Of a stretch of DNA of 64,000 nt, positions 9,825 to 33,752 are shown in pieces (position 1 is the stretch's first letter; each line of letters starts with the position of its first letter). Where the stretch lies: assembly GCA_965217585.1 (NCBI GenBank), contig OZ244561.1:32001-96000 (forward strand), given 5' to 3'. A program made the translations under genes and the position numbers. Below the pieces are notes generated by a model that worked only from the letters and a program-made list of their open reading frames with translations, did not search any database and was not told the DNA's origin. Source of the DNA: Candidatus Latescibacterota bacterium. Lineage in GTDB: Bacteria > Latescibacterota > UBA2968 > UBA8231.

Positions 9825-9852
9825 GCTGCCTCGTTATCTTTCTAGTTCAGTC

Positions 9853-10863: not shown

Positions 10864-11074
10864 GGATTCTGTTAGTTCAAGGTGAATGAGTCGGCGGGAG
10901 CAAGGACAGGTCAGGAGGCCGACGGTCAGTGATAATCTACTATTACTATAACAAGGCGGACAACTCGGCACGGATTTTATCGCGGATATTGCTGCTCATC
11001 ATTCGTTCGTCCTATCTGCGGCCTTCTCGCCCTTTGCCCATCATTTCAGTAAATACCCTCATTAATACCCTTAT

Positions 11075-12130
11075 TCAAGCGTTACTACCCTTATTCCCGA
11101 GAAAACGCCAGCGCGCACCCGGGCCTCGGCCGCTGCAAGCTACATCACCGGATTTCTTTAGCTCCGCTAAGAGGGTGCGAATCCATTCGCGGCCGACGCC
11201 GGGGCAGGCGTGTTCTAGGTCGCTCAGGCGGAATTCGCCCGGTTGGGCGCGGATGGCGGCGAGCACCCGCTCAGACTTGGCACCCCGTGGGGCCTTGATC
11301 TGACCAGCGCGTTCCTCCAATTCGACGTAAGCACGGCGGATGATCGCAAAGAGGAAGTTGAACCAAGGCGTCAGTTCGTGTTTGCCGTCGTGCCAGCGCT
11401 GTGAACTGAGCCGGAGGCATTCGTAGTAGTCCTCCCGGGATTCCTCAATGAGGCGTTCCAAGCTGATGTAGCGACCGACCTCGTAGCCGTGCTGGTAGAG
11501 CGCCAACAGGGTGAGCAGCCGGGACACGCGGCCGTTGCCGTCCCGGAAAGGGTGGATGCAAAGGAAATCCAAGACGAGGGCGGCGATGGCGATGAGCGGC
11601 GGGATATTCTCCTGGTCGAGGCCGTGCTGATAATGCTGGCAGAGTTCTTCTACAGCCGCCGGGGTCTCCGCAACCTTCACGCAGCGGAACCGAACCACCG
11701 GGGCCTGTCCGGGCAAGAATTCCACGATGTCGTTATCGACTCGTTTGAATTCGTCGCCGCTGGCGGACTGGCAAAGGGCATGTAGGCGTTGCAAGGTGTC
11801 TGGTGTGATAGAAAGAGCGGCGTAATCGGAGTGAATCTCGTTCAAGGCGCGGCGATAGTCCTGAATCTCCTGCTCGGAGCGGTCACGAGGTTTCGCTTGG
11901 CCGAGCACCAGCGGGTAAAGGCGGGCTTGGGCGACCGTTACACCTTCAATGCGGTTGGAGGATTCAGCGCTCTGAATGACAGCCGTGTCGCGGAGCGCTT
12001 TGAGGGCTTGCGGCGACTGGCGTGTGAATAGCTCCTGTTTGCCCCTCGACTCGGCGATATCGTTGAGCAGCCACACCGTGCTCAGAGGTGTTTCGTGGTC
12101 GCGTAGGCGGTTGTTGCGGAACGAGTTCAT
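11075..12130 (-). CDS. Fic family protein with C-terminal wHTH
   Basis: Fic motif HPFRDGNGRVSR; SSNRIEG. Confidence 0.92.
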   Translation of the reverse strand: MNSFRNNRLRDHETPLSTVWLLNDIAESRGKQELFTRQSPQALKALRDTAVIQSAESSNRIEGVTVAQARLYPLVLGQAKPRDRSEQEIQDYRRALNEIHSDYAALSITPDTLQRLHALCQSASGDEFKRVDNDIVEFLPGQAPVVRFRCVKVAETPAAVEELCQHYQHGLDQENIPPLIAIAALVLDFLCIHPFRDGNGRVSRLLTLLALYQHGYEVGRYISLERLIEESREDYYECLRLSSQRWHDGKHELTPWFNFLFAIIRRAYVELEERAGQIKAPRGAKSERVLAAIRAQPGEFRLSDLEHACPGVGREWIRTLLAELKKSGDVACSGRGPGARWRFLGNKGSNA

Positions 12131-12186
12131 TTTGAGAAGGCTTTAGGTTTGGAGGAAATTCAACAATCTACACCGGTGAGTACCAG

Positions 12187-12654
12187 CTAACCGGGCAGTC
12201 TACTTACATCTCGTAATTTATGATCCCGTTTATTATTGAAGAATCGCTGTTCTTCAGGCCTAACGTATCGCCAAGACTGAGGGACGACGAAATTCGGGAA
12301 TTGTTTCCTTAGCGTGTTCAGATCAATCGGATTCTTGTATTCCCAGACCTCTGTGATTTCCAAAGCATAAGCAATGGTCCGTCCCTCATAGTAAGCATCG
12401 AAATCTCGTTTATCTATACCCACAAATTCAGACACATTGTTCCAGACTTCCTCGGGTGATCCACTCCACACTTGTCCAACGCGAAAACCGCCACGGAGTT
12501 GCCTGACTGGGCTTGAGACGTAGATAAACACGTCGCGGTTTTCTATATAAGGAGTGATACGTCTCCTTAGTTCAGCCTCTTTGAGTTTTTCAAAAACCAA
12601 GTCTGCATAGCAGGGTTTAAAAGAAAAAAGTAAAGGTGCCATTGTCGCGTTCAT
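12187..12654 (-). CDS. ASCH/PUA-like domain protein
   Basis: LFSFKP.YA..VF..K..ELRR, IYVSSP, PQSWRY pattern; low GC. Confidence 0.8.
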   Translation of the reverse strand: MNATMAPLLFSFKPCYADLVFEKLKEAELRRRITPYIENRDVFIYVSSPVRQLRGGFRVGQVWSGSPEEVWNNVSEFVGIDKRDFDAYYEGRTIAYALEITEVWEYKNPIDLNTLRKQFPNFVVPQSWRYVRPEEQRFFNNKRDHKLRDVSRLPG

Positions 12655-12656
12655 GA

Positions 12657-14669
12657 CTAATCTGGGAATCCCAACCGAAATAGTTTCTGGAATGTTTTCA
12701 TTGGCACTTTGGAAGGAGATTGCAGTGTTAGCCCAACTCTATCTTCCTTAAAGACACCTCGTAGTTCATCCAACGAAATCGGTTTTCTAAAAAGGAAAGT
12801 ATGTGAAAATTTTAGTGCCATAATTTCTTTTGATAGATCACCATCACATAGGTCATAAATATCTTTCCATTCCAGTATCCCAAATTTTTTGAATTTTCCG
12901 AAAAGCACTTTTGGGGTGTCTATCTCAACAGTGTCAAGATGGGATATAGCTATTATTTTTTTTATATCTCCGCTGACGTACCACAGAATTCGGGCAGGAG
13001 GTTTGAGCATTCTATGACAAGTTTTACTACTTCGATAATACACGTTATCCCAACGCAACAATACACTCTTTTTACCTCCAAAGAGATCGTTGGCTGATTG
13101 GTATCTATCAAAGAGGCTGATAGCATAGCCTGGACGGATTGGTATTAAAAAATGATCTTGGTCCGCTGCCAAGCCCAAAGGTGAGCAATGCCGTTCAATA
13201 TCTAGAGGCGACATACTCTGATAATTACTCGACGATTCAGGAGATAGCCTAGAAATTTCACCTAATACCTCTCTATGTTTAAGGCAACGAGAAAAGCAAA
13301 ATTTCACGAAACTGTCATTATACTTTGTAAAACCCACCTCTAAGAGGTCCGCCACCAATCTGGTGACGATAGCTGTTCTATCGAATTTCACTATGTCAAT
13401 GTTCTCTTTCACAGCTTTGTAAACGGTATCCGCGATCAAAAAATGCTCGAATAACAATCGATCATTAGATGACACTACCCTTCCCAAATGTACAGTAAGT
13501 GCGTTACCACTATTGTTTTCAAGAATCCGAATCGCGCATATCTCTCGACCTGACCATAGAAGCTCACACTCATACTGCTTAGGACTTGCAAGGAAATTAT
13601 TCACCCTTTCCCGAAATTTACCTAGTCTTTCCCCTTGGTCTAGAAAGGAGATAAACGGAAAAGATGGGATATCATCGGAGGTCAAGCGACGCCATTCAAG
13701 GCTGAGGCCCGACACGCGGGCTGGCATATAAGATTGTCTTTCGGAGAGCTCGTGAAATTGAATAATCAACTCGGTCGGGGATAACACTTGGATTCTCGTC
13801 ATATCCTCAATTGCATCCGCTTTTTGTAAGAGACGCTGATCTCGAGTAACAAAAAAATTAACGTCAGATGCAGCCGTCCTAGCCAAGTGGCGAATATCGG
13901 ATTTTTCGCGTGGCGTACGATTGGGAAGAATTTTCTTCAGGTGCCCCTCAAAGTGTTCAGCCAATTGTGCGTCGTGTATGATTTTTGGAAATCCATAGGC
14001 TCTGTTTCGGGATTTTTCGCGCTGACTAGAATCGCTATGCCGATCTATTTCGACAAACAGTTCATCGGTGATACAAAGATTGAGGGAACCTATTAAGAAA
14101 TCGGACAGCAAGGCTTTGGATAGCTTTGTTGCATCACTATCCGACCGATCAAAATGGAAGAATATCTGGGCATCAATGACGATATCAATAGCCTCATCTG
14201 ATGTTTTTGTCTGAAAAAGTTCTAACTGGTCATATGGTGCCAGAGTAAGGCACCAAAGCGTCAAGGTGTGTCTAGCTGCGGAACGGCCAGGTTTTTCATT
14301 GATAGGTACGAAGCCCAATTTCGGCCACATGTGATGCGCTGCAAAATCACGTCGGCAATGAAGTTTTATGACCTTCTGAGTAGTGGCAGACGTCTTTAAA
14401 GTGTTAACAAGTCGCCTCACGACACCTCGGCCTTGATATTGTTCCAACACGCAAAGCTGAAAAATACGAAAATAGTTTCGATTGATTCCGTAGAGAAGAT
14501 AACCTATCAGTTGGTCGTCGCCGTTCTTGGCCCCCCAAACACCGCCCTTTTCGAGATAATCACGAAGGGCTTCTCTGGGAAGAAAGCCTAGCGTCCTACG
14601 ATTCCACTTCATCAACTTGTCTACTGCGACAAGGTCAGCAGACGTCAGTTTTGAGATAGTGATACTCAT
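12657..14669 (-). CDS. GNAT-PIN-ASCH/EVE-like multidomain protein
   Basis: N-terminal GNAT (QLCV...QGRGV..RL, W.KLGF); PIN acidic pattern (VIDAQ, DELFVEI, SDIRHL, FVTRD); C-terminal PUA-like IPIRP..NVYYRS..ILWYVS; low GC; ATGA overlap with the RM gene. Confidence 0.75.
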   Translation of the reverse strand: MSITISKLTSADLVAVDKLMKWNRRTLGFLPREALRDYLEKGGVWGAKNGDDQLIGYLLYGINRNYFRIFQLCVLEQYQGRGVVRRLVNTLKTSATTQKVIKLHCRRDFAAHHMWPKLGFVPINEKPGRSAARHTLTLWCLTLAPYDQLELFQTKTSDEAIDIVIDAQIFFHFDRSDSDATKLSKALLSDFLIGSLNLCITDELFVEIDRHSDSSQREKSRNRAYGFPKIIHDAQLAEHFEGHLKKILPNRTPREKSDIRHLARTAASDVNFFVTRDQRLLQKADAIEDMTRIQVLSPTELIIQFHELSERQSYMPARVSGLSLEWRRLTSDDIPSFPFISFLDQGERLGKFRERVNNFLASPKQYECELLWSGREICAIRILENNSGNALTVHLGRVVSSNDRLLFEHFLIADTVYKAVKENIDIVKFDRTAIVTRLVADLLEVGFTKYNDSFVKFCFSRCLKHREVLGEISRLSPESSSNYQSMSPLDIERHCSPLGLAADQDHFLIPIRPGYAISLFDRYQSANDLFGGKKSVLLRWDNVYYRSSKTCHRMLKPPARILWYVSGDIKKIIAISHLDTVEIDTPKVLFGKFKKFGILEWKDIYDLCDGDLSKEIMALKFSHTFLFRKPISLDELRGVFKEDRVGLTLQSPSKVPMKTFQKLFRLGFPD

Positions 14670-17600
14670 GGTTTCCCTTCCACCGTCGAGATTTCTTCCT
14701 CTGTCAGTCCATACAGCGCATACACCAGCCGGTCTATCTCCGCTTCCTGCTTGCCAGTGTCCATCGCCGGATCGTCCGCTTTCGCCGACAAGATACTGTC
14801 CACCAAGCGGATGAACGGGCGTTGCTCTGCGGCGAGGATTTTGGGGATGGGGATGGTTTCCACTGAAATACTAAACCACCGGGTTACGCCCATTCCAGAA
14901 GTAACGGCTGTGTTCCTCATAAACCAGTTTATCAGGTTAGAGTTGAGTATGGCGCATAGAAATTTGATTGACTGCCCGGACACCATATAAACAGTGTTGA
15001 CGCAGAACATTTCACCCTCGTCATACGCAAATCGCCCTTGCTCCGTCAGGTCCATCCAGAACAACTTTTCTTTGGCAAACTCTGCGTGGTAGGCACAATT
15101 ACGGAGATTATACGACGTCCTGCCTTTGTCCTGCCGTTTTTCCAGTCTCGGATAGAACCCGTCCAGATGGCTTTTGATCGCCGGATAGTTGTCAATGTTG
15201 GCAGCGGGAACATTGCCGTAGCCGTTATGCGTGTCAATCAGCCACAAGCCCGCCCATTTTGCCCGGTAACGCTGAATATCCCGCCCACGCAGGATGGGCT
15301 TGATGATTTCAGCAGACTTTGAATCTTCGGCAATCAACGCTTGCCGGGCCACATCGCCAATAATAAAGGCTTCATTGTAGCCTGTCTTGATTCCATAGTT
15401 GATTTTCACCTCCCAATTTTTCAGCGGCGTCCCTTTCACCTTCACCTTATCCATAATGCTGTGTTCGGCGTGCGACAAGATACTCCACGGTTTTTCGCCG
15501 TCCGGGCGTGTTTGTCCCCACAGACTTGCATCAGGCGGGAAGTCTGTGGCGTCCAGTTTGTCCATATCAACGGCATCACATGTGGCGTTGCTACTACCCT
15601 CGCGCACTATCAGGACGCTGGTGTCAACGATGGCGTTTTCAAAAACATCCTTGCCCATTTCCAGCAAGCGCAGCGGCGTATGCCGCTCGGAGAGGTAGCG
15701 ACGCAAGGCTTTGCCGTATTCCGCCTTGAGCCAGCTATTGGAAGTGATGTAAGCCAGCAAGCCTTGAGCCGGTCTCAGCAGCCGACAGCCGCGCTCGTAG
15801 AAAAGCTGGTAAATGTCGCCGGTGCGGGCGAAAGTGGCGTAGCCAGTATCCTTGTAGAGCTTGCCCAGTTCGCCGCCGTTCTTCTGCAATTGAATGTATG
15901 GCGGATTCCCAATCACCACGTCAAACCCGTCGGCGACCCCAAACATATACTCTGTATCGAACCAATCGGCACCGGCATTCTGATCGTAGGGATCCCATTG
16001 GGCAACTTGGTTAGCGGCGGCAGTAGGCATACCAAGTTGGGTCAATTCCTGCGCCAACTCGCCTCGTAGCCGACGGTCCTCATTGAGGCATTTCAGTTTT
16101 GCTTGGCGGTTGGCAGCATGAAAGTGTCGCTCCCGGTTCGCGTGCAATTCGCGCTCTAGCCCTTGCACTTTTTCGCTGCTCAACATGCGCTGACCAAGAC
16201 TCAACAGCGTATTCGCCGCCACAAACCGCGTCTCCAGATTCGGCAGCGGCTTGATGCCGAAGTTCTCCGCCGTCTCGTCGGCTTCTTGTTCAATCGCCAG
16301 CGAAATGAAAAAGCGCAGTTTGGCGATTTGGCAAGCCACCGGCTGAATATCTACGCCAAAGATGCTGTTCTGGATCAGGTAGAGCTTGCGCCCAAAGTCG
16401 CCCGAATACCGCTCAAAGGTCTCGCTGATCTCCAGCAACTCGGCATCGCGCTCTTGCTGATCTTTGGTTTCAAACGCCTCGTCCGCTCGTTGTCTGGCCC
16501 GTTCCTTTTGCAGTGCTTGCCAACGCTGGTTGTCGGGGTCAATCCGCTGCAACGCCAAGGTCAGCTTGTGCAGTATGCCCATTGGAAACGCACCGGAACC
16601 GACCGCCGGGTCCAGCACCTTGATCTCCGCAATCGCCTGTACAATGCCCTCGGCTTCGGCCTCTTCAAAAAGTTCATTGGCGTCGTCGAATGCGTCTTCA
16701 TAATCCAGCAAATAGCGCAACCGCTCTTGCCAGTACGCCGCGTCGCCATCGTCGGGCTGCGCTGTTTCCGCCAGCGTCGCCACCAACGCCTCCTCCACCA
16801 TGTAGTCCACCACAGCGCGGGGCGTGTAGTAGGAGCCGGTTTGCTTGCGCGCCGTCTCGCGGGTCTCTGGGTTGTAGGCCGCCAGCAAATTTTCAAAGAC
16901 CTTGCCGAGCAATTCCGGGTCTAGGGCGACTTCCTGCTCTATGGGCGTGTTTTCCTCCACCGTGAACTTGTAGTGATTGAGTAGAGGAAACAGACCCTGA
17001 TCTTCGTCGAAGAACAGGGCGTCAGGGACGTTCAGTTCCCGCCAAGCATCGCGGCGCGCTTCTGCCGCCCGGGGACCATCGTTTGGGTCCGGATCGCTGA
17101 ACATGTCGACGCGTCTGCCCCCGGCGCTTCTTGATTCTTCATCGTCTAGGCAGTCGAACAGGCCGCCGTTGATGAACGGAGTCTGCTTCATCAGGTCTTC
17201 GAAGCGCTCCGTATCCCGGATGAGTGATTGGTAACGGAAACGTGAAAAGACCCGGTGGCTAGGCTCGGTCCGGGTGCTGAAGCCACGTGCGCCTATCTCG
17301 GTGTTGAGAGTCGCGAAGAAGAGATTCTGCAAAACGGCGCGGTAGTAGTCGGAGCCGCCGAAGTCGTTCAGCAACTCTTCCATTTCGGCGCGAACGAACC
17401 ACTCCTCTCGGACCAGTCCCTTTTCCTTAATGAACCAGACGAACAGGATGCGGGTGATCAACCGGATGACCTGCTGTTCCGCCGACACGGTCGAGGGGAA
17501 CTTCGCTTCCTCTACTGCCTTCTTGAACCAGTCGAATAGCTCGCCGTAGAACCGCCGGTTGAGTTCCTCGGTGTCCAGTTTATCCAACCAAGCAGCCAGC

Positions 17601-18250
17601 AATCCGTCAAAATTGTGTGACTTGTTATGGATGTCTATCCATTCCGAACACTCGGCCAGCGATAGTTCGGCCAAAATGTCCAGATGGGCACGGTGGGGAT
17701 CAGCCGGGTCAATCTCCCGTACCAGCGACACATGGCCCAGCACATCGCGCCCTGGATCGCGCCTGTGCTCGCGGCGATGGACAAAGGACAGGGTGAGCCG
17801 ATGGTCGGCGGTTCTGAACAGAACGACGGTTGGTTGGCTCAGGCGCTTGTTGATCTCCCGGGTGAACTGCGCGTACTGGCCGCGAGTGTAGGTCGTCTCC
17901 TTGAGTCCCACGGCAAAGAAGATAAAGCTCTGTTGCTGTCCCTTGTCGAAGGAATCGGCTTCAAACCCAAGCGTCGGCTGATCGACTGAGGCGATTTCAT
18001 CACTTGTCACCTGAAAGATGATCCGTACGGATCGGACATGCTTGCGGAATGCCTGCCTCGTCTGGGTATTTTGGCTATACGCAGGGAATTCCTGGATAAA
18101 GTCATCCACGCTGCCTGAAAGTTCCTGTGTGCGGTCACTTTGGTATCCGAGGACTTCCAGTAGGTCTTTAGCCGCCGCTAGGAAATCTCTGGCGGGTATG
18201 TCCTTCAGAGCCGATAGAATCTGTTCCTTTGTTTGAGAAACGCTGCTCAT
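14666..18250 (-). CDS. Type IIG-like (Eco57I/TaqI-C) restriction-modification protein, N6-adenine methyltransferase
   Basis: LLGKVFENLL, GSYYTP, DPAVGSGAF (motif I), GNPPY (motif IV), C-terminal TRD (GIKTG.NEAF, LRNCAY, EIDRLVYALYGLT). Confidence 0.92.
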   Translation of the reverse strand: MSSVSQTKEQILSALKDIPARDFLAAAKDLLEVLGYQSDRTQELSGSVDDFIQEFPAYSQNTQTRQAFRKHVRSVRIIFQVTSDEIASVDQPTLGFEADSFDKGQQQSFIFFAVGLKETTYTRGQYAQFTREINKRLSQPTVVLFRTADHRLTLSFVHRREHRRDPGRDVLGHVSLVREIDPADPHRAHLDILAELSLAECSEWIDIHNKSHNFDGLLAAWLDKLDTEELNRRFYGELFDWFKKAVEEAKFPSTVSAEQQVIRLITRILFVWFIKEKGLVREEWFVRAEMEELLNDFGGSDYYRAVLQNLFFATLNTEIGARGFSTRTEPSHRVFSRFRYQSLIRDTERFEDLMKQTPFINGGLFDCLDDEESRSAGGRRVDMFSDPDPNDGPRAAEARRDAWRELNVPDALFFDEDQGLFPLLNHYKFTVEENTPIEQEVALDPELLGKVFENLLAAYNPETRETARKQTGSYYTPRAVVDYMVEEALVATLAETAQPDDGDAAYWQERLRYLLDYEDAFDDANELFEEAEAEGIVQAIAEIKVLDPAVGSGAFPMGILHKLTLALQRIDPDNQRWQALQKERARQRADEAFETKDQQERDAELLEISETFERYSGDFGRKLYLIQNSIFGVDIQPVACQIAKLRFFISLAIEQEADETAENFGIKPLPNLETRFVAANTLLSLGQRMLSSEKVQGLERELHANRERHFHAANRQAKLKCLNEDRRLRGELAQELTQLGMPTAAANQVAQWDPYDQNAGADWFDTEYMFGVADGFDVVIGNPPYIQLQKNGGELGKLYKDTGYATFARTGDIYQLFYERGCRLLRPAQGLLAYITSNSWLKAEYGKALRRYLSERHTPLRLLEMGKDVFENAIVDTSVLIVREGSSNATCDAVDMDKLDATDFPPDASLWGQTRPDGEKPWSILSHAEHSIMDKVKVKGTPLKNWEVKINYGIKTGYNEAFIIGDVARQALIAEDSKSAEIIKPILRGRDIQRYRAKWAGLWLIDTHNGYGNVPAANIDNYPAIKSHLDGFYPRLEKRQDKGRTSYNLRNCAYHAEFAKEKLFWMDLTEQGRFAYDEGEMFCVNTVYMVSGQSIKFLCAILNSNLINWFMRNTAVTSGMGVTRWFSISVETIPIPKILAAEQRPFIRLVDSILSAKADDPAMDTGKQEAEIDRLVYALYGLTEEEISTVEGKP

Positions 18251-18267
18251 TGGACCTGCTCCAGAGA

Positions 18268-18273
18268 ATTATA
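18268..18273 (-). promoter_or_regulatory. Possible -10 box (TATAAT) of an internal promoter for the RM methylase
   Basis: Perfect TATAAT on the minus strand 17 nt before ATG 18250, in a 143-bp AT-rich gap; no well-spaced -35 seen. Confidence 0.3.
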
Positions 18274-18393
18274 CACTGCCATATTTCCGCTCCCATCAAT
18301 AAGTAAACTATATAATTCATCTCAGCCGCATGGCTATCCTCGAATCGGAAAGTCACTCGCCAATTGCAGCATTCAACAGTTTGTCTTAATAGG

Positions 18394-19974
18394 CTATGTG
18401 ATCAGCGTCTTCAGCGCTTGGTAAAATATCCGATGGCGTAGCTTGCTGAGTGCCCGCTCCTTGAGCTGGCGAATGCGCTCGCGCGTTAGATTCATCATGT
18501 CGCCAATTTCCTCAAGCGTCAGGGCCTTGTTGCCATTGAGGCCAAAATAGAGCCTGATAATGCGCGATTCGCGTTCTTCTAGGAGCCCTAGAACTGCCTC
18601 TAACTGTATTAGCGCCGATTCGCGCAAGATGTCGGCGTCAGGGGGAGCCATCGCCTCATCGACCAAGATGTCGCGCAAGCTGATTTCGTCGTCGAAGAAG
18701 GGTTCGTCAAGCGAACATACGGTGCGGGCGCTAAGGGTCGTCTCTATGATCTCTTTGGCCGGAACATCAAGTTCGGCGGAGATTTCTTCCATATCTGGCT
18801 CACTAGCCCGGTCCTGATTCAGTTTGCGCGAGGCTTTGGAAATATCCCTGAGCAAGCTGATTTTGTTGAGGGGGAGTCGCACGATGCGTACATGCTCGTC
18901 AAGCGTTTAGAGAATGGACTGGCGAATCCACCAAACCGCATAGGTAATGAATTTGTGCCCCTTTGTCCCATCGAAGCGATCAGCCGCCGTAATCAGTCCG
19001 ATATTGCCGGCGCTAATCAAGTCAGAGAGGGACAGACCACGATTTTGGTATTTCTTGGCCTCGTTAATGACAAAGCGCAAATTCGCCTGGATCATTTCGT
19101 CGCGGGCGCACATGTCGCCATTTTTGATGCGGTCGGCCAGTTCTGCTTCGCGCTCCCTCGGAAGAGGTGTGGACTCGGCGATATCGTAGAAGTAAAGTCG
19201 TAGAGTTTGCTCCTCCCCTTCCGGGAATTTCTCCTCAAACACCGCCCGTTCAAACCAGTCGAACGTATATCGGTAGAACTCCTGGTTGCGCTCTACGGTG
19301 TCCAGCTTGGCAAGCCAAGCGGCCAGCAAACCTTCGCAGTTGTGCGGCTTGGCATTGGAACTCATCCACTTGGCGCACTCCGATAGCGACAGCTCGGACA
19401 GAACGTCGAGATCGGCACGGCGCGGATTCTCTAGAGGAATATCCTTGCTCAACGACGTAACACGCTTCAGCACGTCACGACTATCATCGAGCTTGTTCGG
19501 ACGGCGACTGATAACAGCGACGGCCAAGCGTGCTCCAGCGCGGAAGAAGACCACGGTTGGCACGATTATCCGCTTATCGATCTCCCGTGTAAATTCGTCA
19601 TATATCCCTTGAGGGTAGTTGTCCTCCTTCAGTTCCACGGCGAGGAAGATAAGGCTCTGCTGCCGTCCTTCCTCAAAGGAAGCAGCCTCAAGCCCAAGTG
19701 TCTGCTGATTGGCTGAGGCGATTTCATCATTCGTTATTTGAAAGACGATCCGCACAGATTGGACGTGCTGGCGAAATGCCTGCTCAGTCTTGGTATTTGG
19801 TTTTTGTGCAGGGAATTCGTGGATAAAACCATCCACGGTGTCTGGAAGTTCTTCTGTGCGGTCACTCTGATAGCCGAGGACTTCCAGTAGGTCTTTAGTC
19901 ACAGCCAGAAAATCGCTGTAGGGCATGGCCGCTAAAGCGGCTTGAATGTCTTCTCGGATGTCGGCCATGCTCAT
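18394..19974 (-). pseudogene. Chimera: RM N-terminal domain fused to an RpoD/RpoS-type sigma70 factor, one in-frame TAA at 18907-18909 (526 codons if read through)
   Basis: ORFs 18907-19995 and 18394-18882 share a frame and read QSIL*TLDEHVRIVRLPLNK, matching QSILQTIAEHARTVRLPLNK of the sigma at 33753; the first ~250 aa align to the N-terminus of 14666-18250; ATG 19974 overlaps the helicase stop (ATGA). Confidence 0.88.
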
Positions 19975-21993
19975 GCCTCTGCGATAATCAGCCAAGTTAT
20001 TAGCTCAAAATCAGCATTACTCGGTTTTGAGGATTTAGCCGGCAGTCTGAAGTCGCGCTGGCCGTGAATACTCAGTTGCCGTATTTGCGTGGCTCTGTCC
20101 GCCCCGCCGATGTGGTCAATCACGGTGTTCAACAGTTTGTCGTAACGGGCCATGTCCTGGCCGTTTTGGGTCTCGCTGTCAAACTGGTCGCATAGCCTTT
20201 TCAGCGGTTCGGTCTTACCGAGGGACGCCGATTCAAACAGCTCCAGCACCTGCCGGGCATTGGCACAACCGTAGCGGATATCGCCGTTGTCGCGGATATA
20301 TACCGCACAGTACGGATGAATCGGGCTGGCCCTTTTTTCTCTTTTGTCAGTACTGGCGTTGCGCTGGCGCAGGAAAAATATCACGCCCGGCTGTGCGGTG
20401 TCGCCTTTCCCGTCGGTTACTGCGTAGGCCCCATAGGGCATTGCTTCCAGTTCCGCCTTGTTTTCCTCCAAATACCGCAACAATTGGGTAAAAAAGTAAT
20501 CGAGCGTAAAGTCGCTCATAACGACGCCATCGGACAGCTCGTCCAAGTCCAGCACCTCTTCGCGCATTTTCTTTAGTTGCTCGTCGCGGAAGTTCAGCTC
20601 CATCTGGATCTGCTCAGGCGGGTCTTCATTCAACGGATCGTCGCCTCCGCTGGCCGTGGCGTCCGCCAAGGCCATGCGTGCTTGTACGCGGCTTTGCAGG
20701 CGCAGATATACCTCCATGTCCTTGGTGGGCCAATAGTTAATCATCCGCACCGACTGGTTGCGGCTGCCGATGCGGTCTATGCGCCCGAAGCGCTGGATAA
20801 TACGCACCGGATTCCAGTGGATGTCGTAGTTGAGCACGGTATCGCAATCTTGAAGATTCTGCCCCTCTGAGATGCAATCGGTAGCAATCAGCAGGTCGAT
20901 TTCGTTAGTGCTATTGGTTTGCCCGTGTGCTCTCGGCGCGAAGTTGGTCAGAATGGCGTTGAAGTTGTTGGCACCGGAAGTGGTGCGCGTTACATCCCCA
21001 GAGACCATTGCCATGTTCAACCCCAATTCGTTCGCCAAGTCAGCCAAGTTCTCGTACAGGTACTCCACGGTGTCTTTGAAGGTGGAGAACACCAGCAGCT
21101 TGCGGTTGATCTGGCCGTCCTTGTTGGTCGTCGGGTGTTGTGCTTTGTCTCGAATGTGCGCCTTGATCTCTCGCAGCTTACCGTCCCGCTCCGGCGTGAT
21201 AATACTGACCCGTTCATAGACTGCTTCCAAGGTCTTCTTATCCTTCAGCAAGTCCTTTTTCCAACGGGGCAAATCCAACTCGCGCAGATGGTAAGGGGTG
21301 CGTGCCCGATTGATCTGAAATTCCTCGTCGTCGTCATCGTCATCCGGGAGGATGTCCGCTCGCTCGTCCAACAGCAGGTTCTGCTCATAGCGGTCTATTT
21401 TTTCTAGTAGGTCTTTAATTTTGCCGATAGTGCGCCCGAGCGTTTCCGTCAGGGAATGGGCCGAACTTTCTAGGCGTTTCAGGAAGTTGACCCGTATCAT
21501 ACCGATGAGGAAATGCTCGCGGTCTGCCTGATTAAACCGTAGTTGCTTTTTTTCCTCCGCCAACCGTTTCTTGGCCTCAGCGCTAGTAACGTAGCTTGAT
21601 GGCCGGTAGATGGATAGGGCGAACCGCTCGATTTGCTCGGATAAACTTTTATATGAAAGTTCGTCCTCTAAATCTGTCAGCGGGTAGCGATTTTTCGGCT
21701 GGTGCCGCGTGGGGAATTGGCCGATTCTGTCCATCTCCTCGGCGTAGAACTGCTTGATCTGACGCCGCGAGCGAGCAATGGAAACGCCGCCCAGCAGCTT
21801 AAAAAAATCAGCGCCCAACGTCTCCAACAACTTTGACTTGTCTTTTTTGCCGCTCTTGTCGGCTTTGGTCTCCCATGCCTTAAACTCCTTTTGCGCCTGC
21901 CTCAGCAGAGCGCCGATATGGCCGATGCCCAGATTTTCCCGGAACACGTCCTCGCGCTTTTCGGTCATCAGGTAAATCTGATTGCGTAAGTCA

Positions 21994-23293
21994 CTTGAAT
22001 TCGACAGGTAGGTTGATATTTAGGCTCGAACAGGCATCGGAGTCTCCCTATTTTGGGATAGCTTGATTCACCGCCATGGATCATCTACCCCAGGGAAACT
22101 CCGATGCTGAACCTGACTCGCTTGCCTGTGAACCTTCGTTATTTTTTGCGTGGGACTCAACATTTTTTTCGTCATCGCCATCATCTGGTGTTCTGTTGGA
22201 GTATGACGCTGTTGTTAATCTATCAAGATAAAGCGACGCTGTGTGGTTTAGCCCGCTTGGGGCCTAACCATATAGCGGAATGGCACTTACGTCGCTTGCT
22301 GAGTGCGACCTACTGGAGTTGGCGGTTGCTGTTGGGGTACTTGGTTGATGCGGTGATCGCCGGGCTGCCACCGGCGGAAGACGGTCGGGTGTTGGTGATC
22401 GTCGACGGGACCTACAAAGCCAAGGTGGCCAAGAAACATCCGTTGGTGCGCAAAGCCCGCGCCGATGGCTATAGTCCCTTTCTGTGGGGGTTTGAAGTGA
22501 TCCTGGTCATGCTGCAGTGGGGCAATTATCGAATCCCTATCGATTTCGAGTTGGTTCGGCGTAAAGAAGACCCGGCCTATCAGAAGCCCAATGTGTTGTT
22601 TCGTCAGATGCTGACCGCCTTGGTACCACCGGCTTGGGCCCAGCAAGTGATCGTGGTCGCCGATGCCGGGTTTCCCGCTAAAGAAACGCTGCACTTGATC
22701 CAGCAACGAGGCTTCTTTTTCGTCATGAGTCTGCCCCGCACCTGGAAGTTTGAAGACGGCCATACGCTCAAAGATTGGGTCCATCATACGCGCCATACCT
22801 GTTATCGAAAAATCTGGTTTCGTCCGCACGGCTCCCGTCGGCGGGTCTATTGGGTCTACCGCGGTCGTAAACGCCTGCGACACATCGGAGATGTCACGTT
22901 GGTCTTGAGCAAGAAACGGCGCAACGATTCGCCGAAACAAACCAAAATCCTGGTGACCAATCTACCGGACGTGACCGCAGGCCAACTCGTCGTGTTGTAT
23001 ACCCGCCGCTGGCACGTGGAACTGCTCATCAAAGAATTGAAAGGGGCCACCGGATTAGGACAAGCCCAGGTGACCAAGCAGACCCAACGAGTCGAACGCT
23101 CCGTCGCGTTGTCCGTTATGGCCTACTTGGTTTTGATCCATTTTCGGCAGCGGGATATTCCCCACCAAGGACCGTGGAGTGCGTTTACCCTCAAGCGAAA
23201 TTTTGCTTGGGAGTGTGCGCGAAAACAGATTGAACATAACCAAAAACGAACCTACACAAAGGCCGCCTAAGACAACTACCTGTCGAATTCAAC
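21994..23293 (+). mobile_element. 1300-bp insertion sequence (IS4/IS701-like DDE) with 17-bp inverted repeats and 7-bp TSD
   Basis: TTGAATTCGACAGGTAG at 21995-22011 and its reverse complement at 23276-23292; TAAGTCA duplicated at 21987-21993 and 23294-23300. Confidence 0.93.
22104..23270 (+). CDS. DDE transposase
   Basis: VIVDGT, VADAGF, YTRRWHVELLIKELK (Y-R-E-K signature). Confidence 0.9.
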   Translation: MLNLTRLPVNLRYFLRGTQHFFRHRHHLVFCWSMTLLLIYQDKATLCGLARLGPNHIAEWHLRRLLSATYWSWRLLLGYLVDAVIAGLPPAEDGRVLVIVDGTYKAKVAKKHPLVRKARADGYSPFLWGFEVILVMLQWGNYRIPIDFELVRRKEDPAYQKPNVLFRQMLTALVPPAWAQQVIVVADAGFPAKETLHLIQQRGFFFVMSLPRTWKFEDGHTLKDWVHHTRHTCYRKIWFRPHGSRRRVYWVYRGRKRLRHIGDVTLVLSKKRRNDSPKQTKILVTNLPDVTAGQLVVLYTRRWHVELLIKELKGATGLGQAQVTKQTQRVERSVALSVMAYLVLIHFRQRDIPHQGPWSAFTLKRNFAWECARKQIEHNQKRTYTKAA

Positions 23294-24602
23294 TAAGTCA
23301 ATAAGCGAGGTGTTGACCGGCGTCGCCGAAAGCATCAGCACCTTGGTTTGGGTACCGGCTTTGATGACTTCTTCCAACAACCGCGAGTAGCGGCTGTGGC
23401 GAATCCTGCCGTCGTCGTCGGAGCGAGGCTTGGAGTCATTGCGGAAATTGTGCGATTCGTCGATGACCACCATGTCAAAATTGCGCCAGTTGAAGTTTGC
23501 CAGATCAATATCGCCGGCCCTGCCCGTGTCGCGGGACAAGTCAGTGTGCGATAGCAGCGCGTAGCCGAAGCGATCGTCTAAGAAGGGATTGCCAGTTTGG
23601 GCATTATCGGCTGGATACAGTGCCCAATTTTCGCGCAGCTTTTTGGGGCACAACACCAGCACCCGCTCGTTGCGCAATTCAAAGAACTTGATCACTGCCA
23701 ACGCTGTGTAGGTCTTTCCCAAGCCGACGCTGTCGGCCAAGATACAGCCGTTGTGCCCCAACAGGCGGGCGATCGCGCTTTTGGCACCGTCTTTTTGGAA
23801 GTCGTACAGCGCATTCCAGATTGCGGTATCGTATAGGTGCGTATCTTTTAGGTGGCTTTCGCCGGCTTTCCTCGCTTCGATGTCCTCCTGGAACAACTCG
23901 TAGAGCGTTTTATAATAGATCAACTCCGGCGCGTATTCTCTGCCTATCCGCGCCAGCGCGTCCAGCACGTCTTTTTTGACATCCTTGGTCAACGTCTTGT
24001 CCGCCCACAGATCGTCAAACCATTGTTGCAGTTCGGTACAAGTAGCTGCGTTTTGGGTTGCCAAGTTGATTTCCACGTTGGCACTCGTCCCGCTGCCTAA
24101 GCCGCCGCGAGTGAAGTTAGAGCTGCCGACCACCGCTGTGCCGCCATTGGCTGATTCGGTGAGATACATCTTGCCGTGCAGAAAGTTGGATTGGCCAATA
24201 GAGCGAATTTTGACGCCTTTGTCGTCTACCCATTCAGCGCATTGATTGGCGAGGTATTTCTGTCGCAAGGTGTATTGAGGAGATAGCCCGTCTTCGGTCA
24301 GGTTGAAGGCTTTTTGCGCTTTCTCGCCGGGGTCCAACTCGCCAACCGATGCCGGATCGCCAAAGAGGAAGCGCACGTCCTCAACGCCGCGCAATTCGCT
24401 TTGCAGGGCCTCGTACCCGTAAATAGTGAAATACGCCGAAACGAGGCGAAATACCTCGGCGGAGGACAGGTGCTGCCGCAGATAATCGACGACCTTGCGG
24501 GCGCGGTTGTCCAAAATGTGCTCATATTGGGTCACTTTTGATAGCTTCCGTTAAGGCGTTCATCATTAGTTGCCTATTCCCCCGTATCACCGTTCGGGCA
24601 GA

Positions 24603-25625
24603 TCACGGATCCCCGAGATTGATTCTCTGTATGATCTTCTTTGCCAAATCCCTAAAATCCCGGTGTGCGTCTTTTGCCGCGGCGGCATGGCTGCCAATGG
24701 CACCATCGGCCGTGGTGAGGTGGAAAATAGGCTTGCGTGCTTCCTGAGCCATCGGCACCAAGCTCCGGTAGTGCTTGACGGTGGCAAGGGCGTGTTCCTC
24801 ATCCTGTGTCGGTGTCTCGGGGTACGGTCCTTCGTTATCATCGCACAGGTTGCGGGCGTATTCTTCCGGCATTCTATTGACCCATTTGTCATACGCCCTG
24901 ACGGGGCGGTTCAGACGGACGCCGTGCTGTTGCACTACATAGCCGACGGGTTGCATGGCCCCATCCGGCAGTGGAAAGTCCGGTTGCGCCCAGTGGTCCC
25001 TTCGCCGCTGCCAGTCTTGTCGCCACCGATTCAGCGTCGGGCCGAGATTGCGCAGACCTTGGAGCGAAAACAAGTCGGCACCCAGCGGAACGACGATGTA
25101 ATCAGTGGCAATCAGCGCGGAGCGATTAATCGCACCAAGATTGGGGCCAACGTCGGCCAAGATGATTGAGGCGTCCATCTGTGCGGCCCCAGACTGCATG
25201 ACGGTCGAGAAGGCAGTTAAAATGCGGAAGGGGCGGTACAGCTCGCTAGAACCCAATGCGTTAGGCCATTCTGATGACAGAGTATCTTCAAATCCGGCCA
25301 GCGCCAAGTCTCCCGGAATCAGGCACAGTCTAGATATAAGCGTAGATGTGATTTCGACGAGCGTCGGGTCTTTGATATCGCCAACTTTCGTCAGAGGTCG
25401 GACGCATTGCAGTATGGTCTTAGCGGATGCCTCGTTGTCTTCATCCCACAGCATTTCCAACTGATCTTCATTTAGAAATGCAGCGGTGAGATTCGCCTGT
25501 GGATCGAGATCGCAGGCCAGCACTCGATAACCACTGTCGGACAGCATCCACGCCAGATGATAGACAAGCGAGGTCTTGCCAATCCCCCCCTTGTTGTTGA
25601 AGAAAGTCAAGACGGGAACGGTCAT
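24603..25625 (-). CDS. ParA/Soj-like ATPase (defence-island type)
   Basis: NNKGGIGKTS deviant Walker A, DLDPQANLT, DVGPNLG; no parB nearby. Confidence 0.85.
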   Translation of the reverse strand: MTVPVLTFFNNKGGIGKTSLVYHLAWMLSDSGYRVLACDLDPQANLTAAFLNEDQLEMLWDEDNEASAKTILQCVRPLTKVGDIKDPTLVEITSTLISRLCLIPGDLALAGFEDTLSSEWPNALGSSELYRPFRILTAFSTVMQSGAAQMDASIILADVGPNLGAINRSALIATDYIVVPLGADLFSLQGLRNLGPTLNRWRQDWQRRRDHWAQPDFPLPDGAMQPVGYVVQQHGVRLNRPVRAYDKWVNRMPEEYARNLCDDNEGPYPETPTQDEEHALATVKHYRSLVPMAQEARKPIFHLTTADGAIGSHAAAAKDAHRDFRDLAKKIIQRINLGDP

Positions 25626-25627
25626 CG

Positions 25628-26857
25628 TTATGCTCCCCTTGCCTTTACTGTTACCCGCGCAAAATTATTGGAAATATCAAATTCAGGTTCTGGATGTCCC
25701 GCCTCCGCCAACTGATTCTTGGCTATTGGTATTCCTACGCCAAAACGCTGAACAAATCCGAGAGTTCTCATCGCGTCCGCAAGATTTGGATTGCGATAAT
25801 CGACTAACCCCGGCTCTCCAAAGCTCTCGATTGTCACCGCCCCAAATGCGCCGCCGGGGCTCAAAACCTCAATGCGGTCATTGAACCAATAGACATGAAC
25901 GGGCGCATTGGTTGCCTCGTAAGTCCTGTGCATCACTGCGTTGTGGGTGATCTGGTGCAATGCTTCTAGGGGGTACAGCTCTGTTCGTTGTTCAATGTAG
26001 CTTGTTGTAATATCCACAGCGATGCGATTGTGGGCCGTCAGTTTTTCTTTGAGCTGGCGCAGGAGTTCCGGGATGGCACCGCGTATCTCTTGGGCATCGA
26101 TTATCTCATCAGCGTATCCATTGCCATCGATTCTGAGGAATTGCACATAAGCACCTGGCAGAAAATCCTGCGGGTTTTTGCCGATCGTGAGTATGCCCAG
26201 CACGGTCGCGGTGGGCTGGTCGGCGGCGACGATCATTTTTGTCGCTGCCAGTTGCTCATTCAGGCTGCGGTCGTTTGCTGCTAGTACCTCATCCGAAAAT
26301 GCTGCGGTTAAGTATTCGTTCTCAAACTGGGTCAGATTGAGGTCGGACAAGCCGGCGGTCGGGATCGGTTGAAGGTCAAAAGGGCGATTTCCGTATCGCC
26401 GCTTTTCGTTGAGAGTCCTTTCGTCCTGAGATGTAGCGATGCCACGGCGAGGGCCAATGCGGACATGGATAGCACCCTTGAAGCGAACCGGCGGCGAGTT
26501 GGAGGGTTGCACTGTGATCACTGCAACTTCCTTGCCTTGCAGCCTACGCTTCTCCACCGTCAGCGAGGGTGGAGGTACGATATTGCCGTCGGTTTTCATA
26601 TCGGCCAACTGCTGGAGCAACTGATCTGTAACCGCTAGAGTGCCTATCGTTCCATCGTCCTTTACACCAACGAAGATGAGGCCGGGTTTTTCGTGCTCGG
26701 CCAAATCATTGGCAAAAGCACAGATAGCTTCCCGGATTATAGTGGCGGCGACACCAGCCAAAGACTCCTTGAACTCGACGCGGTCAGCTTCGCCGCTTGC
26801 GATGATTTGCAGCAACTCTTGTTCTGTAAAATCTGGCATTGCGATTGCCCCGCTCAT
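25628..26857 (-). CDS. Schlafen/AlbA_2 domain fused to HATPase_c_4 (RecG-C-like) domain
   Basis: GEADRVEFKES, ICAFAN, G.IFVGVKDDG; NAVMHRTY, DRIEVLSPG, RNPNLA, FGVGI. Confidence 0.85.
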   Translation of the reverse strand: MSGAIAMPDFTEQELLQIIASGEADRVEFKESLAGVAATIIREAICAFANDLAEHEKPGLIFVGVKDDGTIGTLAVTDQLLQQLADMKTDGNIVPPPSLTVEKRRLQGKEVAVITVQPSNSPPVRFKGAIHVRIGPRRGIATSQDERTLNEKRRYGNRPFDLQPIPTAGLSDLNLTQFENEYLTAAFSDEVLAANDRSLNEQLAATKMIVAADQPTATVLGILTIGKNPQDFLPGAYVQFLRIDGNGYADEIIDAQEIRGAIPELLRQLKEKLTAHNRIAVDITTSYIEQRTELYPLEALHQITHNAVMHRTYEATNAPVHVYWFNDRIEVLSPGGAFGAVTIESFGEPGLVDYRNPNLADAMRTLGFVQRFGVGIPIAKNQLAEAGHPEPEFDISNNFARVTVKARGA

Positions 26858-26869
26858 GTTGACCTAGTA

Positions 26870-27060
26870 TCAGCCTGTGCGTTCAAGCACAACGGGCCAA
26901 GTTACCAACTCAAAATCGCCGTTGTTTGGGTTGGCGGATTGCACAGGCAGCCTGAAATCTCGCTGACCGTAAATGCTCAGTTGCTGGATCCGCGTGGCTC
27001 TGTCCGCCCCGCCGATGTGGGCCATGCCCGCATTCAACAGGATGTGTTCGTATTCTGCCC
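26870..27060 (-). pseudogene. Remnant of a second PLD-SNF2 helicase copy
   Basis: HIGGADRATRIQQLSIYGQRDFRLP..DFELVTW matches the C-terminus of 19971-21968; 29 bp identical at 20087-20115 and 26992-27020. Confidence 0.8.
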
Positions 27061-27144
27061 TGTTGGATAGGGAAAGAGGTGAGCAGACTTTCAATTACTT
27101 AGTGATTGTCTAGTTCCCATGCAACTCGCAGCCGGGATTCTTCG

Positions 27145-28050
27145 TCAAAAGCGCAGCAATTCCCCCTCGCCAAAGACGAGTAGATCGGCCAAGATCGCGG
27201 CAAAGTAGATCAGGCTGACCGTACTGTTGACCGTCATAAAGGCCGTGCTCAGGCGAGACAAGTCGTCGGCCCGCACCAGCCGGTGCTCGTACACCAACAA
27301 GCCAGCTACCACTACGACCCCCAACCAGTATAAAAGACTCAAGCCAGCCGCACGGCCCACGAGGATCAGTAGCACCACAAACAATAGGTGTAAGGCGCGG
27401 GCAATGTACAGGGCGCGGGCAATGCCAAAGCGGACCGGGATGGAATGGAGTCCGGCCCGGACGTCAAAGGCGTGGTCCTGGCAGGCGTAGATGATGTCAA
27501 AGCCGGCGACCCAAACCAGCACCCCCAAGCAGAGCGGCAGCGGGATGAGGTCAAAGCCGCCGGTGACCGCAATCCAAGCGCCCAGCGGCGCCCCGCCCAA
27601 ACTCAACCCTAGAACTAAGTGAGAGGCCCAAGTGAAGCGCTTGGTCAGCGAGTAGAACAAGAGCACGGCCAAAACCAGCGGCGACAGATAAAAGCACAAA
27701 GAATTGAGCTGATGTGCCGCCAAGACCAAAACCAAGGCCGACAAAACCACGAACAACCCCACGGCTTGAGGCGAGACCACACCTCGCGGTAGTTCGCGGT
27801 TTTGAGTGCGGGGATTGGTCGCGTCGAGATGGCGGTCAACGAGGCGATTGAAACCCATCGCCGCGCTGCGCGCCCCCACCATCGCCAGCGCGATCCAGCC
27901 GATCTGAGCCGGGGTGATGCCAGCGTGCATCGCGGCCAGCAAAGCACCGCTAAAGGCAAAAGGCAGGGCAAAGACGCTGTGGGAGAATTTGATCATGCGG
28001 CCGTACACCGCAATGGCCTGCAAGGGAGCCATCTCGACCTTCCTTGACAA
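27145..28050 (-). CDS. ubiA: UbiA-family prenyltransferase (MqnP-type)
   Basis: IKFSHSVFALPFA, NRLVDRHLDATNPRT..RELP, GFDIIYACQD; multiple TM segments. Confidence 0.88.
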   Translation of the reverse strand: MSRKVEMAPLQAIAVYGRMIKFSHSVFALPFAFSGALLAAMHAGITPAQIGWIALAMVGARSAAMGFNRLVDRHLDATNPRTQNRELPRGVVSPQAVGLFVVLSALVLVLAAHQLNSLCFYLSPLVLAVLLFYSLTKRFTWASHLVLGLSLGGAPLGAWIAVTGGFDLIPLPLCLGVLVWVAGFDIIYACQDHAFDVRAGLHSIPVRFGIARALYIARALHLLFVVLLILVGRAAGLSLLYWLGVVVVAGLLVYEHRLVRADDLSRLSTAFMTVNSTVSLIYFAAILADLLVFGEGELLRF

Positions 28051-28062
28051 GGGCGGCCTGGG

Positions 28063-33420: not shown

Positions 33421-33436
33421 TGGCATTGGATTTGCT
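33421..33436 (+). promoter_or_regulatory. Sigma54 -24/-12 promoter
   Basis: TGGCATTGGATTTGCT with exact GG-N10-GC spacing, just downstream of an enhancer-binding protein gene. Confidence 0.75.
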
Positions 33437-33447
33437 TATCTATACGT

Positions 33448-33512
33448 AGGTCGAAATGAGCGCCTCTCACCCCTCCGCGCAACAGGGAGGGTTTCACGGC
33501 GCGTATCGACCT
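33448..33512 (+). ncRNA. Candidate structured small RNA or 5' leader
   Basis: Nested pairings AGGTCGA/TCGACCT, GCGCC/GGCGC, CCCTCC/GGAGGG beginning at the expected +1 of the sigma54 promoter. Confidence 0.4.
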
Positions 33513-33752
33513 TAACTATTTGTTAATACAGAGCAAACAATTTTGTCTCACCAAGTATTGAACAACGCGGGGGCGTTTTACAGCCCTCAACTGAAACGGT
33601 GAGAATGCAAATTATGCACTTTGGAACACTGGAACCCGACGCTTCTAACTCGCGCAATTTAAGCGCTTTGCGGAACGTCGGCCCAAAATTGTTGCAACTG
33701 AGTGCAAAAATTTGTGCCTGCTGAACCCATTTACCCAAGGAAGGTTTCGCAC

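Follow-up and report, generated by a model that had tools for sequence, protein, structure and literature searches.

In the current view, it is methylase or target recognition domain (TRD) modules that direct restriction systems to their targets. The functional analogue of the core described here is to be found among the hemimethylating asymmetric systems of Type ISP and Type III; no sigma component is known from these two types. The same kind of analogue, hemimethylating asymmetric ATP-dependent systems, is treated in the discussion section of a preprint (bioRxiv 10.64898/2026.09.23.753747). In BR-2/MANTIS (Gao_RL) and Hma, according to the sections of two sources that deal with these systems, the effector is a helicase-nuclease combining an HKD domain with an SF2/SNF2 helicase, while an N6-methyltransferase (MTase) sets the specificity (PMC12839542; bioRxiv 10.64898/2026.09.23.753747). 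The locus under study lies in a 64,000-nucleotide stretch of DNA (the window) from a Latescibacterota-type genome that is related to sponge-associated metagenome-assembled genomes (MAGs). It is a candidate defence island whose core comprises an HKD-SNF2 helicase-nuclease gene, a type IIG-like restriction-modification (RM) gene and, between the two, a gene in which the N-terminal domain of such an RM protein, hereafter called the head, is fused to a sigma-70 factor. No description of a sigma factor fused to an RM head was found in the literature searched.

An initial annotation, made from the letters of the window alone, had recognised this gene as an RM::sigma fusion; the fusion proved to be real, but the gene is not intact. 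It is seen as two open reading frames (ORFs), one covering the head and sigma regions 1.2 to 2 (18907–19995) and the other regions 3 to 4 (18394–18882), which lie in the same reading frame with nothing but one TAA at 18907–18909, inside region 2, to interrupt it (WWIRQSIL*TLDEH). Intact homologues mostly carry Q at this position; in this genome, the fusion has been truncated by the change of a CAA codon to TAA. A contig of run X1 matches positions 18400–18943 with 0 differences, X1 possibly being the source sample and the match therefore not independent. Pfam finds Sigma70_r1_2, r2, r3 and r4 in order on the fusion, together with a weak match to DUF4391, and the best NCBIfam matches of the sigma part are of the RpoS/RpoD types (group 1/2-like sigma-70). 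When the fusion was searched against its own genome, residues 9–267 matched the head of the adjacent RM protein at 58 % identity, and residues 260–362 matched the chromosomal sigma factor L003 at 86 %.

The same architecture recurs in relatives. Among the 120 clusters listed from the protein collection, 55, with lengths of 421–570 aa, align over 96 % or more of the 362-aa query; intact homologues of the fusion measure 520–570 aa, and in homologues the head/sigma junction falls exactly at sigma region 1.2. A search of genome contigs yielded nine fusion loci, all from MAGs labelled Latescibacterota or Gemmatimonadota, in which the HKD-SNF2 gene lies upstream of the fusion without exception and an RM-type gene or its remains lies downstream in eight, the contig of the ninth (L015) ending there. 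Four more distant loci, from Porisulfidus, Terriglobales, Ignavibacteriaceae and Burkholderiales, consist of the helicase and then the RM gene only. Across the 168 genomes of the phylum, the head domain occurs in 37, and frames of fusion length (470–575 aa) are present in 15 genomes besides this one, in three families; the sigma part was confirmed by tblastn at the fetched loci, its presence in the other genomes being deduced from frame length. The ratio of nonsynonymous to synonymous substitution rates (dN/dS) over 36 pairs is 0.19–0.49 for the head and 0.19–0.32 for the sigma part, and both halves are under purifying selection. The fusion is a real conserved family confined to one bacterial lineage, and the transcription-linked component suspected in the initial annotation turns out to be a conserved part of the core. 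As a side observation, 45 nt of the linker of sigma region 3 (window 18742–18786) are duplicated in tandem in contigs of runs X5 and X9, and many homologues have at least one extra acidic EEIAAELEVP-like repeat in this linker (columns 440–500 of alignment A1).

The head is by no means restricted to the fusion. Searched alone, it matches 759 representative clusters, always at the N-terminus and mostly of proteins of 1000–1350 aa, and the mid-length head proteins that were scanned are RM fragments, several of them with weak DUF4391 matches. On the fusion of the window, DUF4391 (PF14335) scores 20.1 bits against a gathering threshold of 29.9, and P0248 alone among the relatives scanned passes it with 30.2 bits; the head is at best a distant relative of this family. 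Its AlphaFold model, with a predicted local distance difference test value (pLDDT) of 81 and a predicted template modelling score of 0.78, gave no match at E≤0.001 in a Foldseek search of the PDB. The top matches of a wider structural aligner are weak, namely the nuclease head of DrdV (Z 6.1, root-mean-square deviation (rmsd) 4.3, 122 aligned) and BpuSI (Z 5.0). Most head members share a D83/E84...E114-x-K116 pattern, E114 being present in 18 of 18 fusions and 11 of 16 RM heads (the RM protein of the window has G) and K116 in 13 of the 16 RM heads.

A complex prediction for the fusion head and helicase residues 345–1085 scored 0.71 (runs 0.72, 0.71 and 0.71), compared with 0.00 for the best of three controls. 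Of 157 solved complexes, 116 attain the mark applied to this score, as do 2 of 215 mismatched pairs; these counts are rough in the present case, for which own alignments were used. At least 87 % of the contacts are common to the runs, and the pLDDT of the partner is no lower than 75. The predicted interface places helicase residues 1045–1065 against head residues 37–43, 76–81, 104–109 and 134–138. At this interface S37, R39, F78, Q79, T81, S107, K134 and R135 are invariant or nearly so over 18 fusions and 16 RM proteins, and the C-terminal tail of the helicase is conserved in 11 of 11 helicases, those of two-gene systems included. Based on the complex prediction, the invariant contact residues and the conserved tail, the head is best read as a socket for the C-terminal tail of the motor and not as an obligate nuclease, a role predicted for the fusion and extended by analogy to the RM protein.

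The sigma half points to a host origin. In the tree, the sigma parts of 17 of the 19 fusions form one clade (98/96) that is sister to the host sigma L003; region 4.2 of the fusion is identical to L003 and region 2.4 is nearly identical to the host sigma. The two other fusions, P0055 and P0062, carry a different sigma type, whose region 4.2 resembles that of host L005. Their sigma parts sit on long branches and are about 51 % identical to L003 and 63–74 % identical to stand-alone sigma factors in metagenomes; the 80 loci obtained in a metagenome scan with P0055 share no more than its sigma part. In these two fusions the sigma part appears to stem from a second capture or a replacement. Downstream of the fusion, the spacer that separates it from the RM gene can be aligned to the helicase 3′ end in the window as well as in L010, L012 and L013, and is 84–86 % identical to the spacers of L009, L010 and L013; L011, L012 and G133 keep longer helicase 3′ fragments between fusion and RM gene. 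The helicase-like spacer and these leftover fragments show that a segment comprising the helicase 3′ end and the head was duplicated and that a host sigma-70 was captured behind the first head copy, which created the third gene. Sequence comparison thus shows that the fusion arose by duplication and host sigma capture in this lineage. Apart from the fusion, the genome encodes six short RpoD-like sigma factors, none of which reaches the RpoD_Cterm cut-off (best 248 vs 354 bits), and a stand-alone sigma paralogue (L004, window 33423–34346, plus strand) is 74 % identical to region 1.2–2 of the fusion.

Such a history might have left nothing more than a by-product without function, created as cassettes inserted at a junction prone to recombination. 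The helicase–RM junction is indeed an insertion hot spot, in which AIPR genes, Schlafen-ParA pairs and helicase 3′ fragments are found, and the fusion is interrupted in the window and survives only as remnants in three genomes. We nevertheless consider this explanation very improbable, as intact ORFs of 470–575 aa occur in 15 genomes from three families, dN/dS is well below 1 in both halves, the contact residues are fully kept and a second sigma type is found in P0055 and P0062.

The proximity of the sigma part to the host sigma would also suit a decoy, which a phage anti-sigma factor binds, thereby releasing or activating the motor-nuclease held by the head. The identical region 4.2 and the sister clade agree with this view, the different sigma type of P0055 and P0062 is what would be expected of a decoy tracking its host, and the head is predicted to hold the tail of the nuclease. 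However, a phage partner is not known, and a functional sigma factor, obliged to match the core enzyme and promoters of its host, would account for these data equally well. Moreover, the fusion sigmas have longer branches than the stand-alone ones, which is not what a strict mimic would be expected to show; taken together, we regard the decoy as rather unlikely.

The spacer itself contains a TATAAT box shortly before the start codon of the RM gene, and a promoter scan found one 9-of-12 site in it vs 0.5 expected. As TTGATG lies 20 nt from TATAAT, too far for a classic promoter, a spacer promoter is not claimed, and a structured RNA was dropped as a candidate as well, RNAalifold giving 24 pairs with a compensatory change in just 2. 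Spacers with the TATAAT box are found only in fusion loci, the RM gene of two-gene systems following directly after the helicase, and they are conserved across loci to the extent given above at a synonymous divergence of 0.27–0.48. Both observations would be in line with the fusion acting as an operon transcription regulator like a C-protein, which drives the methylase from a spacer promoter with the head as a feedback sensor. This is an unlikely role, since the identical region 4.2 and nearly identical region 2.4 leave no private promoter specificity, the spacer is a relic of coding sequence with the single promoter-like site just mentioned, and the retention of every tail-contact residue in the head would go unexplained; furthermore, neither another copy of the spacer nor its motif was found elsewhere in the genome.

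The explanation that we favour, with a probability of roughly 0.6 for the whole of it, is that of a mosaic defence island that occupies a chromosomal slot of variable content, bordered by ubiA and fic, and is composed of a helicase and methylase core, a sigma-tethered motor and separable accessory cassettes. Its core would be a two-component ATP-dependent RM system made of the HKD nuclease-SNF2 motor protein and the head-N6-MTase-TRD protein, of which the latter would mark self DNA and, through its head, engage the motor-nuclease at unmarked sites, in the same mode as Type III, Type ISP and MANTIS-like systems. Because the fusion keeps the socket residues together with the promoter-reading helices of a host sigma, region 4.2 being identical, it would present the same socket on a host-like sigma and most likely couple the motor-nuclease to the RNA polymerase holoenzyme, thus serving as an alternative to the methylase-TRD targeting module. 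The accessory pairs would probably act as back-up effectors. That such an adaptor replaces the TRD in target selection, either because its sigma part recognises promoters or because it senses a phage attack on sigma, is a tentative proposal.

Several points weigh against this explanation. Binding of the RNA polymerase core or of promoters by the fusion is an indirect deduction, and the docking is a prediction made with the fusion head only, not with that of the RM protein. The restriction-endonuclease-like head may cut DNA as well as, or instead of, docking. The fusion often decays, being broken here and present as remnants in G138, G133 and G050. Tight packing across module borders, exemplified by the ATGA overlap of the RM and GNAT genes, and the cassettes embedded between helicase and RM gene in seven relatives argue for more functional integration than the term mosaic conveys. 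The related genomes are moreover kin, so that counts across them are not independent.

Table 1. Features of the island and its border in the window, listed in the direction of transcription of the minus-strand genes.
Feature	Position	Strand	Description
Schlafen (AlbA_2) + HATPase_c_4	25628..26857	-	Pfam SLFN_AlbA_2 8e-17, HATPase_c_4 5e-18
ParA/MinD-like ATPase	24603..25625	-	Pfam AAA_31 4.6e-27, CbiA
Helicase, N-terminal part	23301..24535	-	HKD/PLD nuclease + SNF2 RecA1 lobe; Pfam PLDc_2, SNF2-rel_dom
IS701/IS4-type insertion sequence	21994..23293	+	1300 bp, 17-bp inverted repeats
Helicase, C-terminal part	19971..21993	-	RecA2 lobe + C-terminal tail; Pfam Helicase_C
N-domain (head) :: sigma-70 r1.2-r4.2 fusion	18394..19974	-	N-domain 19201-19974; sigma part 18394-19200
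Spacer between fusion and RM gene	18251..18393	-	143 bp, decayed duplicate of helicase 3′ end
RM: N-domain (head), gamma-type N6-adenine MTase, TaqI_C TRD (type IIG-like)	14666..18250	-	Intact 1194-aa ORF
GNAT - PIN - GNAT-like - C-terminal domain (PDC-M11A)	12657..14669	-	670 aa; Pfam GNAT residues 29-126; PDC-M11A 3.5e-22
ASCH-like small protein (PDC-M11B)	12187..12654	-	PADLOC PDC-M11B 2.6e-30; Pfam ASCH E 0.015
Fic	11075..12130	-	Pfam Fic 4.4e-16; motif HPFRDGNGR; right border of island

The partner predicted to dock into the head, the helicase-nuclease, had been described as a PLD-SNF2 helicase in the initial annotation; its domains are as named, but what is present is one gene split by an insertion sequence (IS). 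Its halves appear as ORFs at 19971–21968 and 23276–24535, with the transposase in between at 22104–23270 on the plus strand; the N-terminal half carries HxK at residue 120 with GSSN, GLGKT at 271 and DESH at 359. The PADLOC profile C3a139 (HKD+Snf2) matches the C-terminal half at 5.3e-65 and the N-terminal half at 9.2e-44. A 7-bp target duplication, TAAGTCA, flanks the IS at 21987–21993 and 23294–23300, and in-silico removal of 1307 bp restores a helicase ORF of 1085 aa, which is the length of intact relatives. With eight copies at 100 % and two at 97 % identity in the 7.3-Mb genome, the IS has been active recently. Runs X1, X5 and X9 each contain contigs that skip exactly these 1307 bp, and in X5 most of the IS is without read depth, from which the insertion looks recent and is absent from near-identical relatives in other runs. 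Coverage in the RNA run X17 comprises the IS and a few short pieces only. Since the IS-split helicase and the TAA-cut fusion leave only the methylase and the accessory modules intact, the restriction arm of this genome is inactivated, and only methylation and the accessory modules can still work. Elsewhere, other members of the system are decaying too: the helicase gene is fragmented in L015 (L015:8126-9313), the RM gene is split in L016 (L016:11764-15504) and that of G072 contains an in-frame TAG (G072:C1:4840340-4841101).

The RM protein of the window matches the PADLOC profile REase_MTase_IIG at 8e-146 as well as Pfam Eco57I, TaqI_C and N6_Mtase, has motif I (VLDPAVGSGAF) at residue 551 and NPPY at residue 782, and its N-domain is encoded at window positions 17456–18250. 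In some relatives the RM gene is closely followed by an additional TaqI_C TRD segment in inverted orientation (L013:15535-17396 and L016:15570-17400, and likewise in G058, L113:1352-2077; G083, L114:2117-2890; and G138, L115:13693-14445). In L013 a tyrosine recombinase gene comes next. The arrangement looks like a phase-variable specificity shufflon; it is absent from the window.

In all, ten closely packed genes on the minus strand span positions 11075–26857 in the ORF map, with ATGA overlaps at the helicase/fusion and RM/GNAT junctions and 2-nt gaps at the Schlafen/ParA and GNAT/ASCH junctions. The GC content of 12187–26857 is 0.523, compared with 0.603 in the remainder of the window, and the ORF map and three profile libraries (Pfam, PADLOC, NCBIfam) place the named domains at the coordinates of Table 1, PIN being recognised by fold only; orientation, packing, domain content and low GC thus all agree with the initial annotation. 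As the housekeeping genes flanking the island likewise lie on the minus strand, co-orientation alone does not mark a unit. Among the modules, the GNAT/ASCH pair has the lowest GC content with 0.43–0.44, the others ranging from 0.53 to 0.56. Neither a tRNA in positions 1–40000 nor an integrase in the island was found, which excludes a classic integrative element, and an Rfam scan of 9000–29000 gave zero matches. Near the end of the window, at 61001–63000, there is a second stretch of low GC content (0.45–0.47) that may be another island.

The slot itself is variable. The closest syntenic relative of the window is L010, its Mqn, UbiA, Fic, GMD and ilvD being 95–98 % identical, and holds AIPR and TIR genes in place of the accessory modules of the window, while the slots of other loci carry DUF3644 or an SMC-like ATPase. 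It is this syntenic locus with a different cargo, together with the GC differences between modules and the distribution of the accessory pairs, that leads us to read the island as a mosaic. The AIPR abortive-infection genes in the same slot are located at L010:4972-6642, L012:4958-6736, L011:8285-9958 and L014:8278-9969, and in two relatives AIPR sits between helicase and fusion; L010:15471-16676 encodes a TIR_2 protein, followed by a 539-aa ORF.

The accessory pairs travel as small cassettes of their own. A Schlafen gene is present in 34 of the 168 genomes of the phylum and is directly followed by the ParA-like gene in 32 of them. This pair stands upstream of the helicase in the window and in G119 and between helicase/fusion and RM gene in G102, G058, G083, G138, G133, G145/L012 and G050; in about two thirds of the 34 genomes it is found away from any head-domain gene. 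The GNAT-PIN gene is rarer, occurring in eight of the 168 genomes, always with an adjacent ASCH gene (8/8). The two lie directly downstream of the RM gene in four genomes (G000, G102, G052 and G050) and elsewhere in the other four, and the GNAT protein has 822 homologous clusters at E≤1e-10, its family being spread over many phyla. Its PIN domain was recognised by the likeness of its fold to VapC11 (6a7v_A; Z 12.4, rmsd 2.8, 127 aligned; model pLDDT 66), and a second GNAT-like fold matches 8osp_C at Z 13.3, whereas Pfam at E≤5 gave nothing useful on the middle and C-terminal parts of the protein and left PIN undetected. The call of a C-terminal ASCH domain comes from one weak PDC-M11B match (E 0.0023) and a low-confidence part of the model. 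By their distribution, Schlafen-ParA and GNAT-PIN/ASCH appear to be separable cassettes that recur beside or inside the core.

Counted as a member of the island in the initial annotation, Fic behaves as conserved flank and not as variable cargo. Its GC content of 0.608 is flank-like, the gene keeps the same border with 95–96 % identity in L010 (95.8 %) and G102 and its place also in G138, and it evolves like the flank, whereas fusion and RM gene are 73–89 % identical in the L010 comparison. It matches the SoFic profile of PADLOC at 4.9e-36 but attains 58 bits with the NCBIfam equivalog, whose cut-off is 550.

All eight genes might alternatively form one obligate defence system in which the accessory proteins are subunits of the RM machine. 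This would account for the co-orientation and the 4-nt or 2-nt junctions across module borders, for Schlafen-ParA lying between helicase/fusion and RM gene in the seven genomes named above and for PDC-M11 following directly 3′ of the RM gene in four. We judge it to be quite improbable, given that two- and three-gene forms exist without accessory modules, that L010 carries AIPR and TIR genes in the same slot, that Schlafen-ParA and PDC-M11 so often reside away from the core (in roughly two thirds of 34 and in four of eight genomes, respectively), that the PDC-M11 family extends over many phyla and that the GC content of the modules differs (0.43 vs 0.53–0.56). The synteny and co-occurrence check proposed with the initial annotation accordingly had a divided result: the trio of helicase, fusion and RM gene is constant, but the eight genes are not a fixed set. 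Similarly, of the abortive back-ups suggested there, Schlafen-ParA and GNAT-PIN/ASCH do recur by the core, while the restriction arm they would back up is dead in this genome and Fic belongs to the flank. Returning to the mosaic explanation, the recurrence of accessory pairs beside or inside the core fits the back-up-effector theme of the literature, at least in those sections of the source that concern it (PMC12839542).

If the fusion does carry the motor-nuclease on its host-type sigma as predicted, restriction would be tied directly to the machinery of transcription; should the sigma part also take over targeting, this would be a form of transcription-coupled restriction that has not been described so far. 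The fusion would also offer a testable handle on the function of the DUF4391-like head in common helicase-methylase systems and on how accessory effectors slot into such operons. Intact copies of the fusion exist in the lineage and could be expressed; the copy of the window is dead and represents an example of decay, not a working system.

In comparison with known systems, PADLOC maps the gene set to no single named system and would call an RM type IIG, PDC-M11 and SoFic in the island. The helicase and N6-MTase core without DrmA/B, PglZ or BrxC that had been proposed was borne out. Regarding DISARM, there is no separate DrmA or DrmB ORF in the island, the SNF2 and MTase genes giving weak DrmD, DrmMI and DrmA-helicase-core hits; regarding BREX, no PglZ or BrxC is found among the island ORFs, and PglX models score 64–85 bits against cut-offs of 400–900. 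The adjacent GNAT-PIN and ASCH genes match both the A and B profiles of PDC-M11. The Schlafen plus HATPase architecture has been reported adjoining BREX and BR loci, and Schlafen-HisK-type back-up effectors are often linked to BREX-related systems; the passages of that source on BREX/BR back-up effectors do not mention a fixed ParA-like partner such as the one found here in 32 of 34 genomes (PMC12839542).

Like the fusion, MzaA of the MZA system places sigma-70 regions 2 to 4 with a long N-terminal extension in a defence system. It matches at 1.3e-19 and 1.8e-12 in PADLOC and with 88 and 103 bits, against a cut-off of 800, in NCBIfam (NF041931), but just the sigma part is matched (profile 431–494 and 590–658), and the N-terminal domain and the partner genes are different. 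With BR Type-2/MANTIS the core shares the HKD and SF2 helicase effector and the N6-MTase; it differs from these systems and from Hma in that no DUF499/ORC-type ATPase (MtsA/HmaC) and no DUF3780 (MtsB) were found among the island ORFs, in a Pfam and PADLOC scan that covered the island and its immediate flanks, and the helicase matches C3a139 (5e-65) far better than HmaA (1.4e-22).

The RM protein has the same order of head, gamma-type N6-MTase and TaqI_C TRD as Type IIG/IIL enzymes (Eco57I/MmeI-like), and the best, albeit weak, fold matches of its kind of head are the nuclease heads of DrdV and BpuSI. Unlike Type IIG enzymes, RM proteins of this type do not stand alone, an HKD-SNF2 gene lying upstream in 13 of 13 loci, directly adjoining in the two-gene loci and with the fusion, sometimes also a cassette, in between in the fusion loci. 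They differ further in that the putative catalytic E is absent from 5 of 16 RM heads, that of the window included, and in the predicted docking of the helicase tail to the head. A motor-nuclease coupled to an MTase-TRD module is a feature shared with the Type ISP and Type III systems; the core described here differs from them in being split into two proteins, with an HKD/PLD nuclease instead of Mrr/PD-ExK and an SNF2-type motor.

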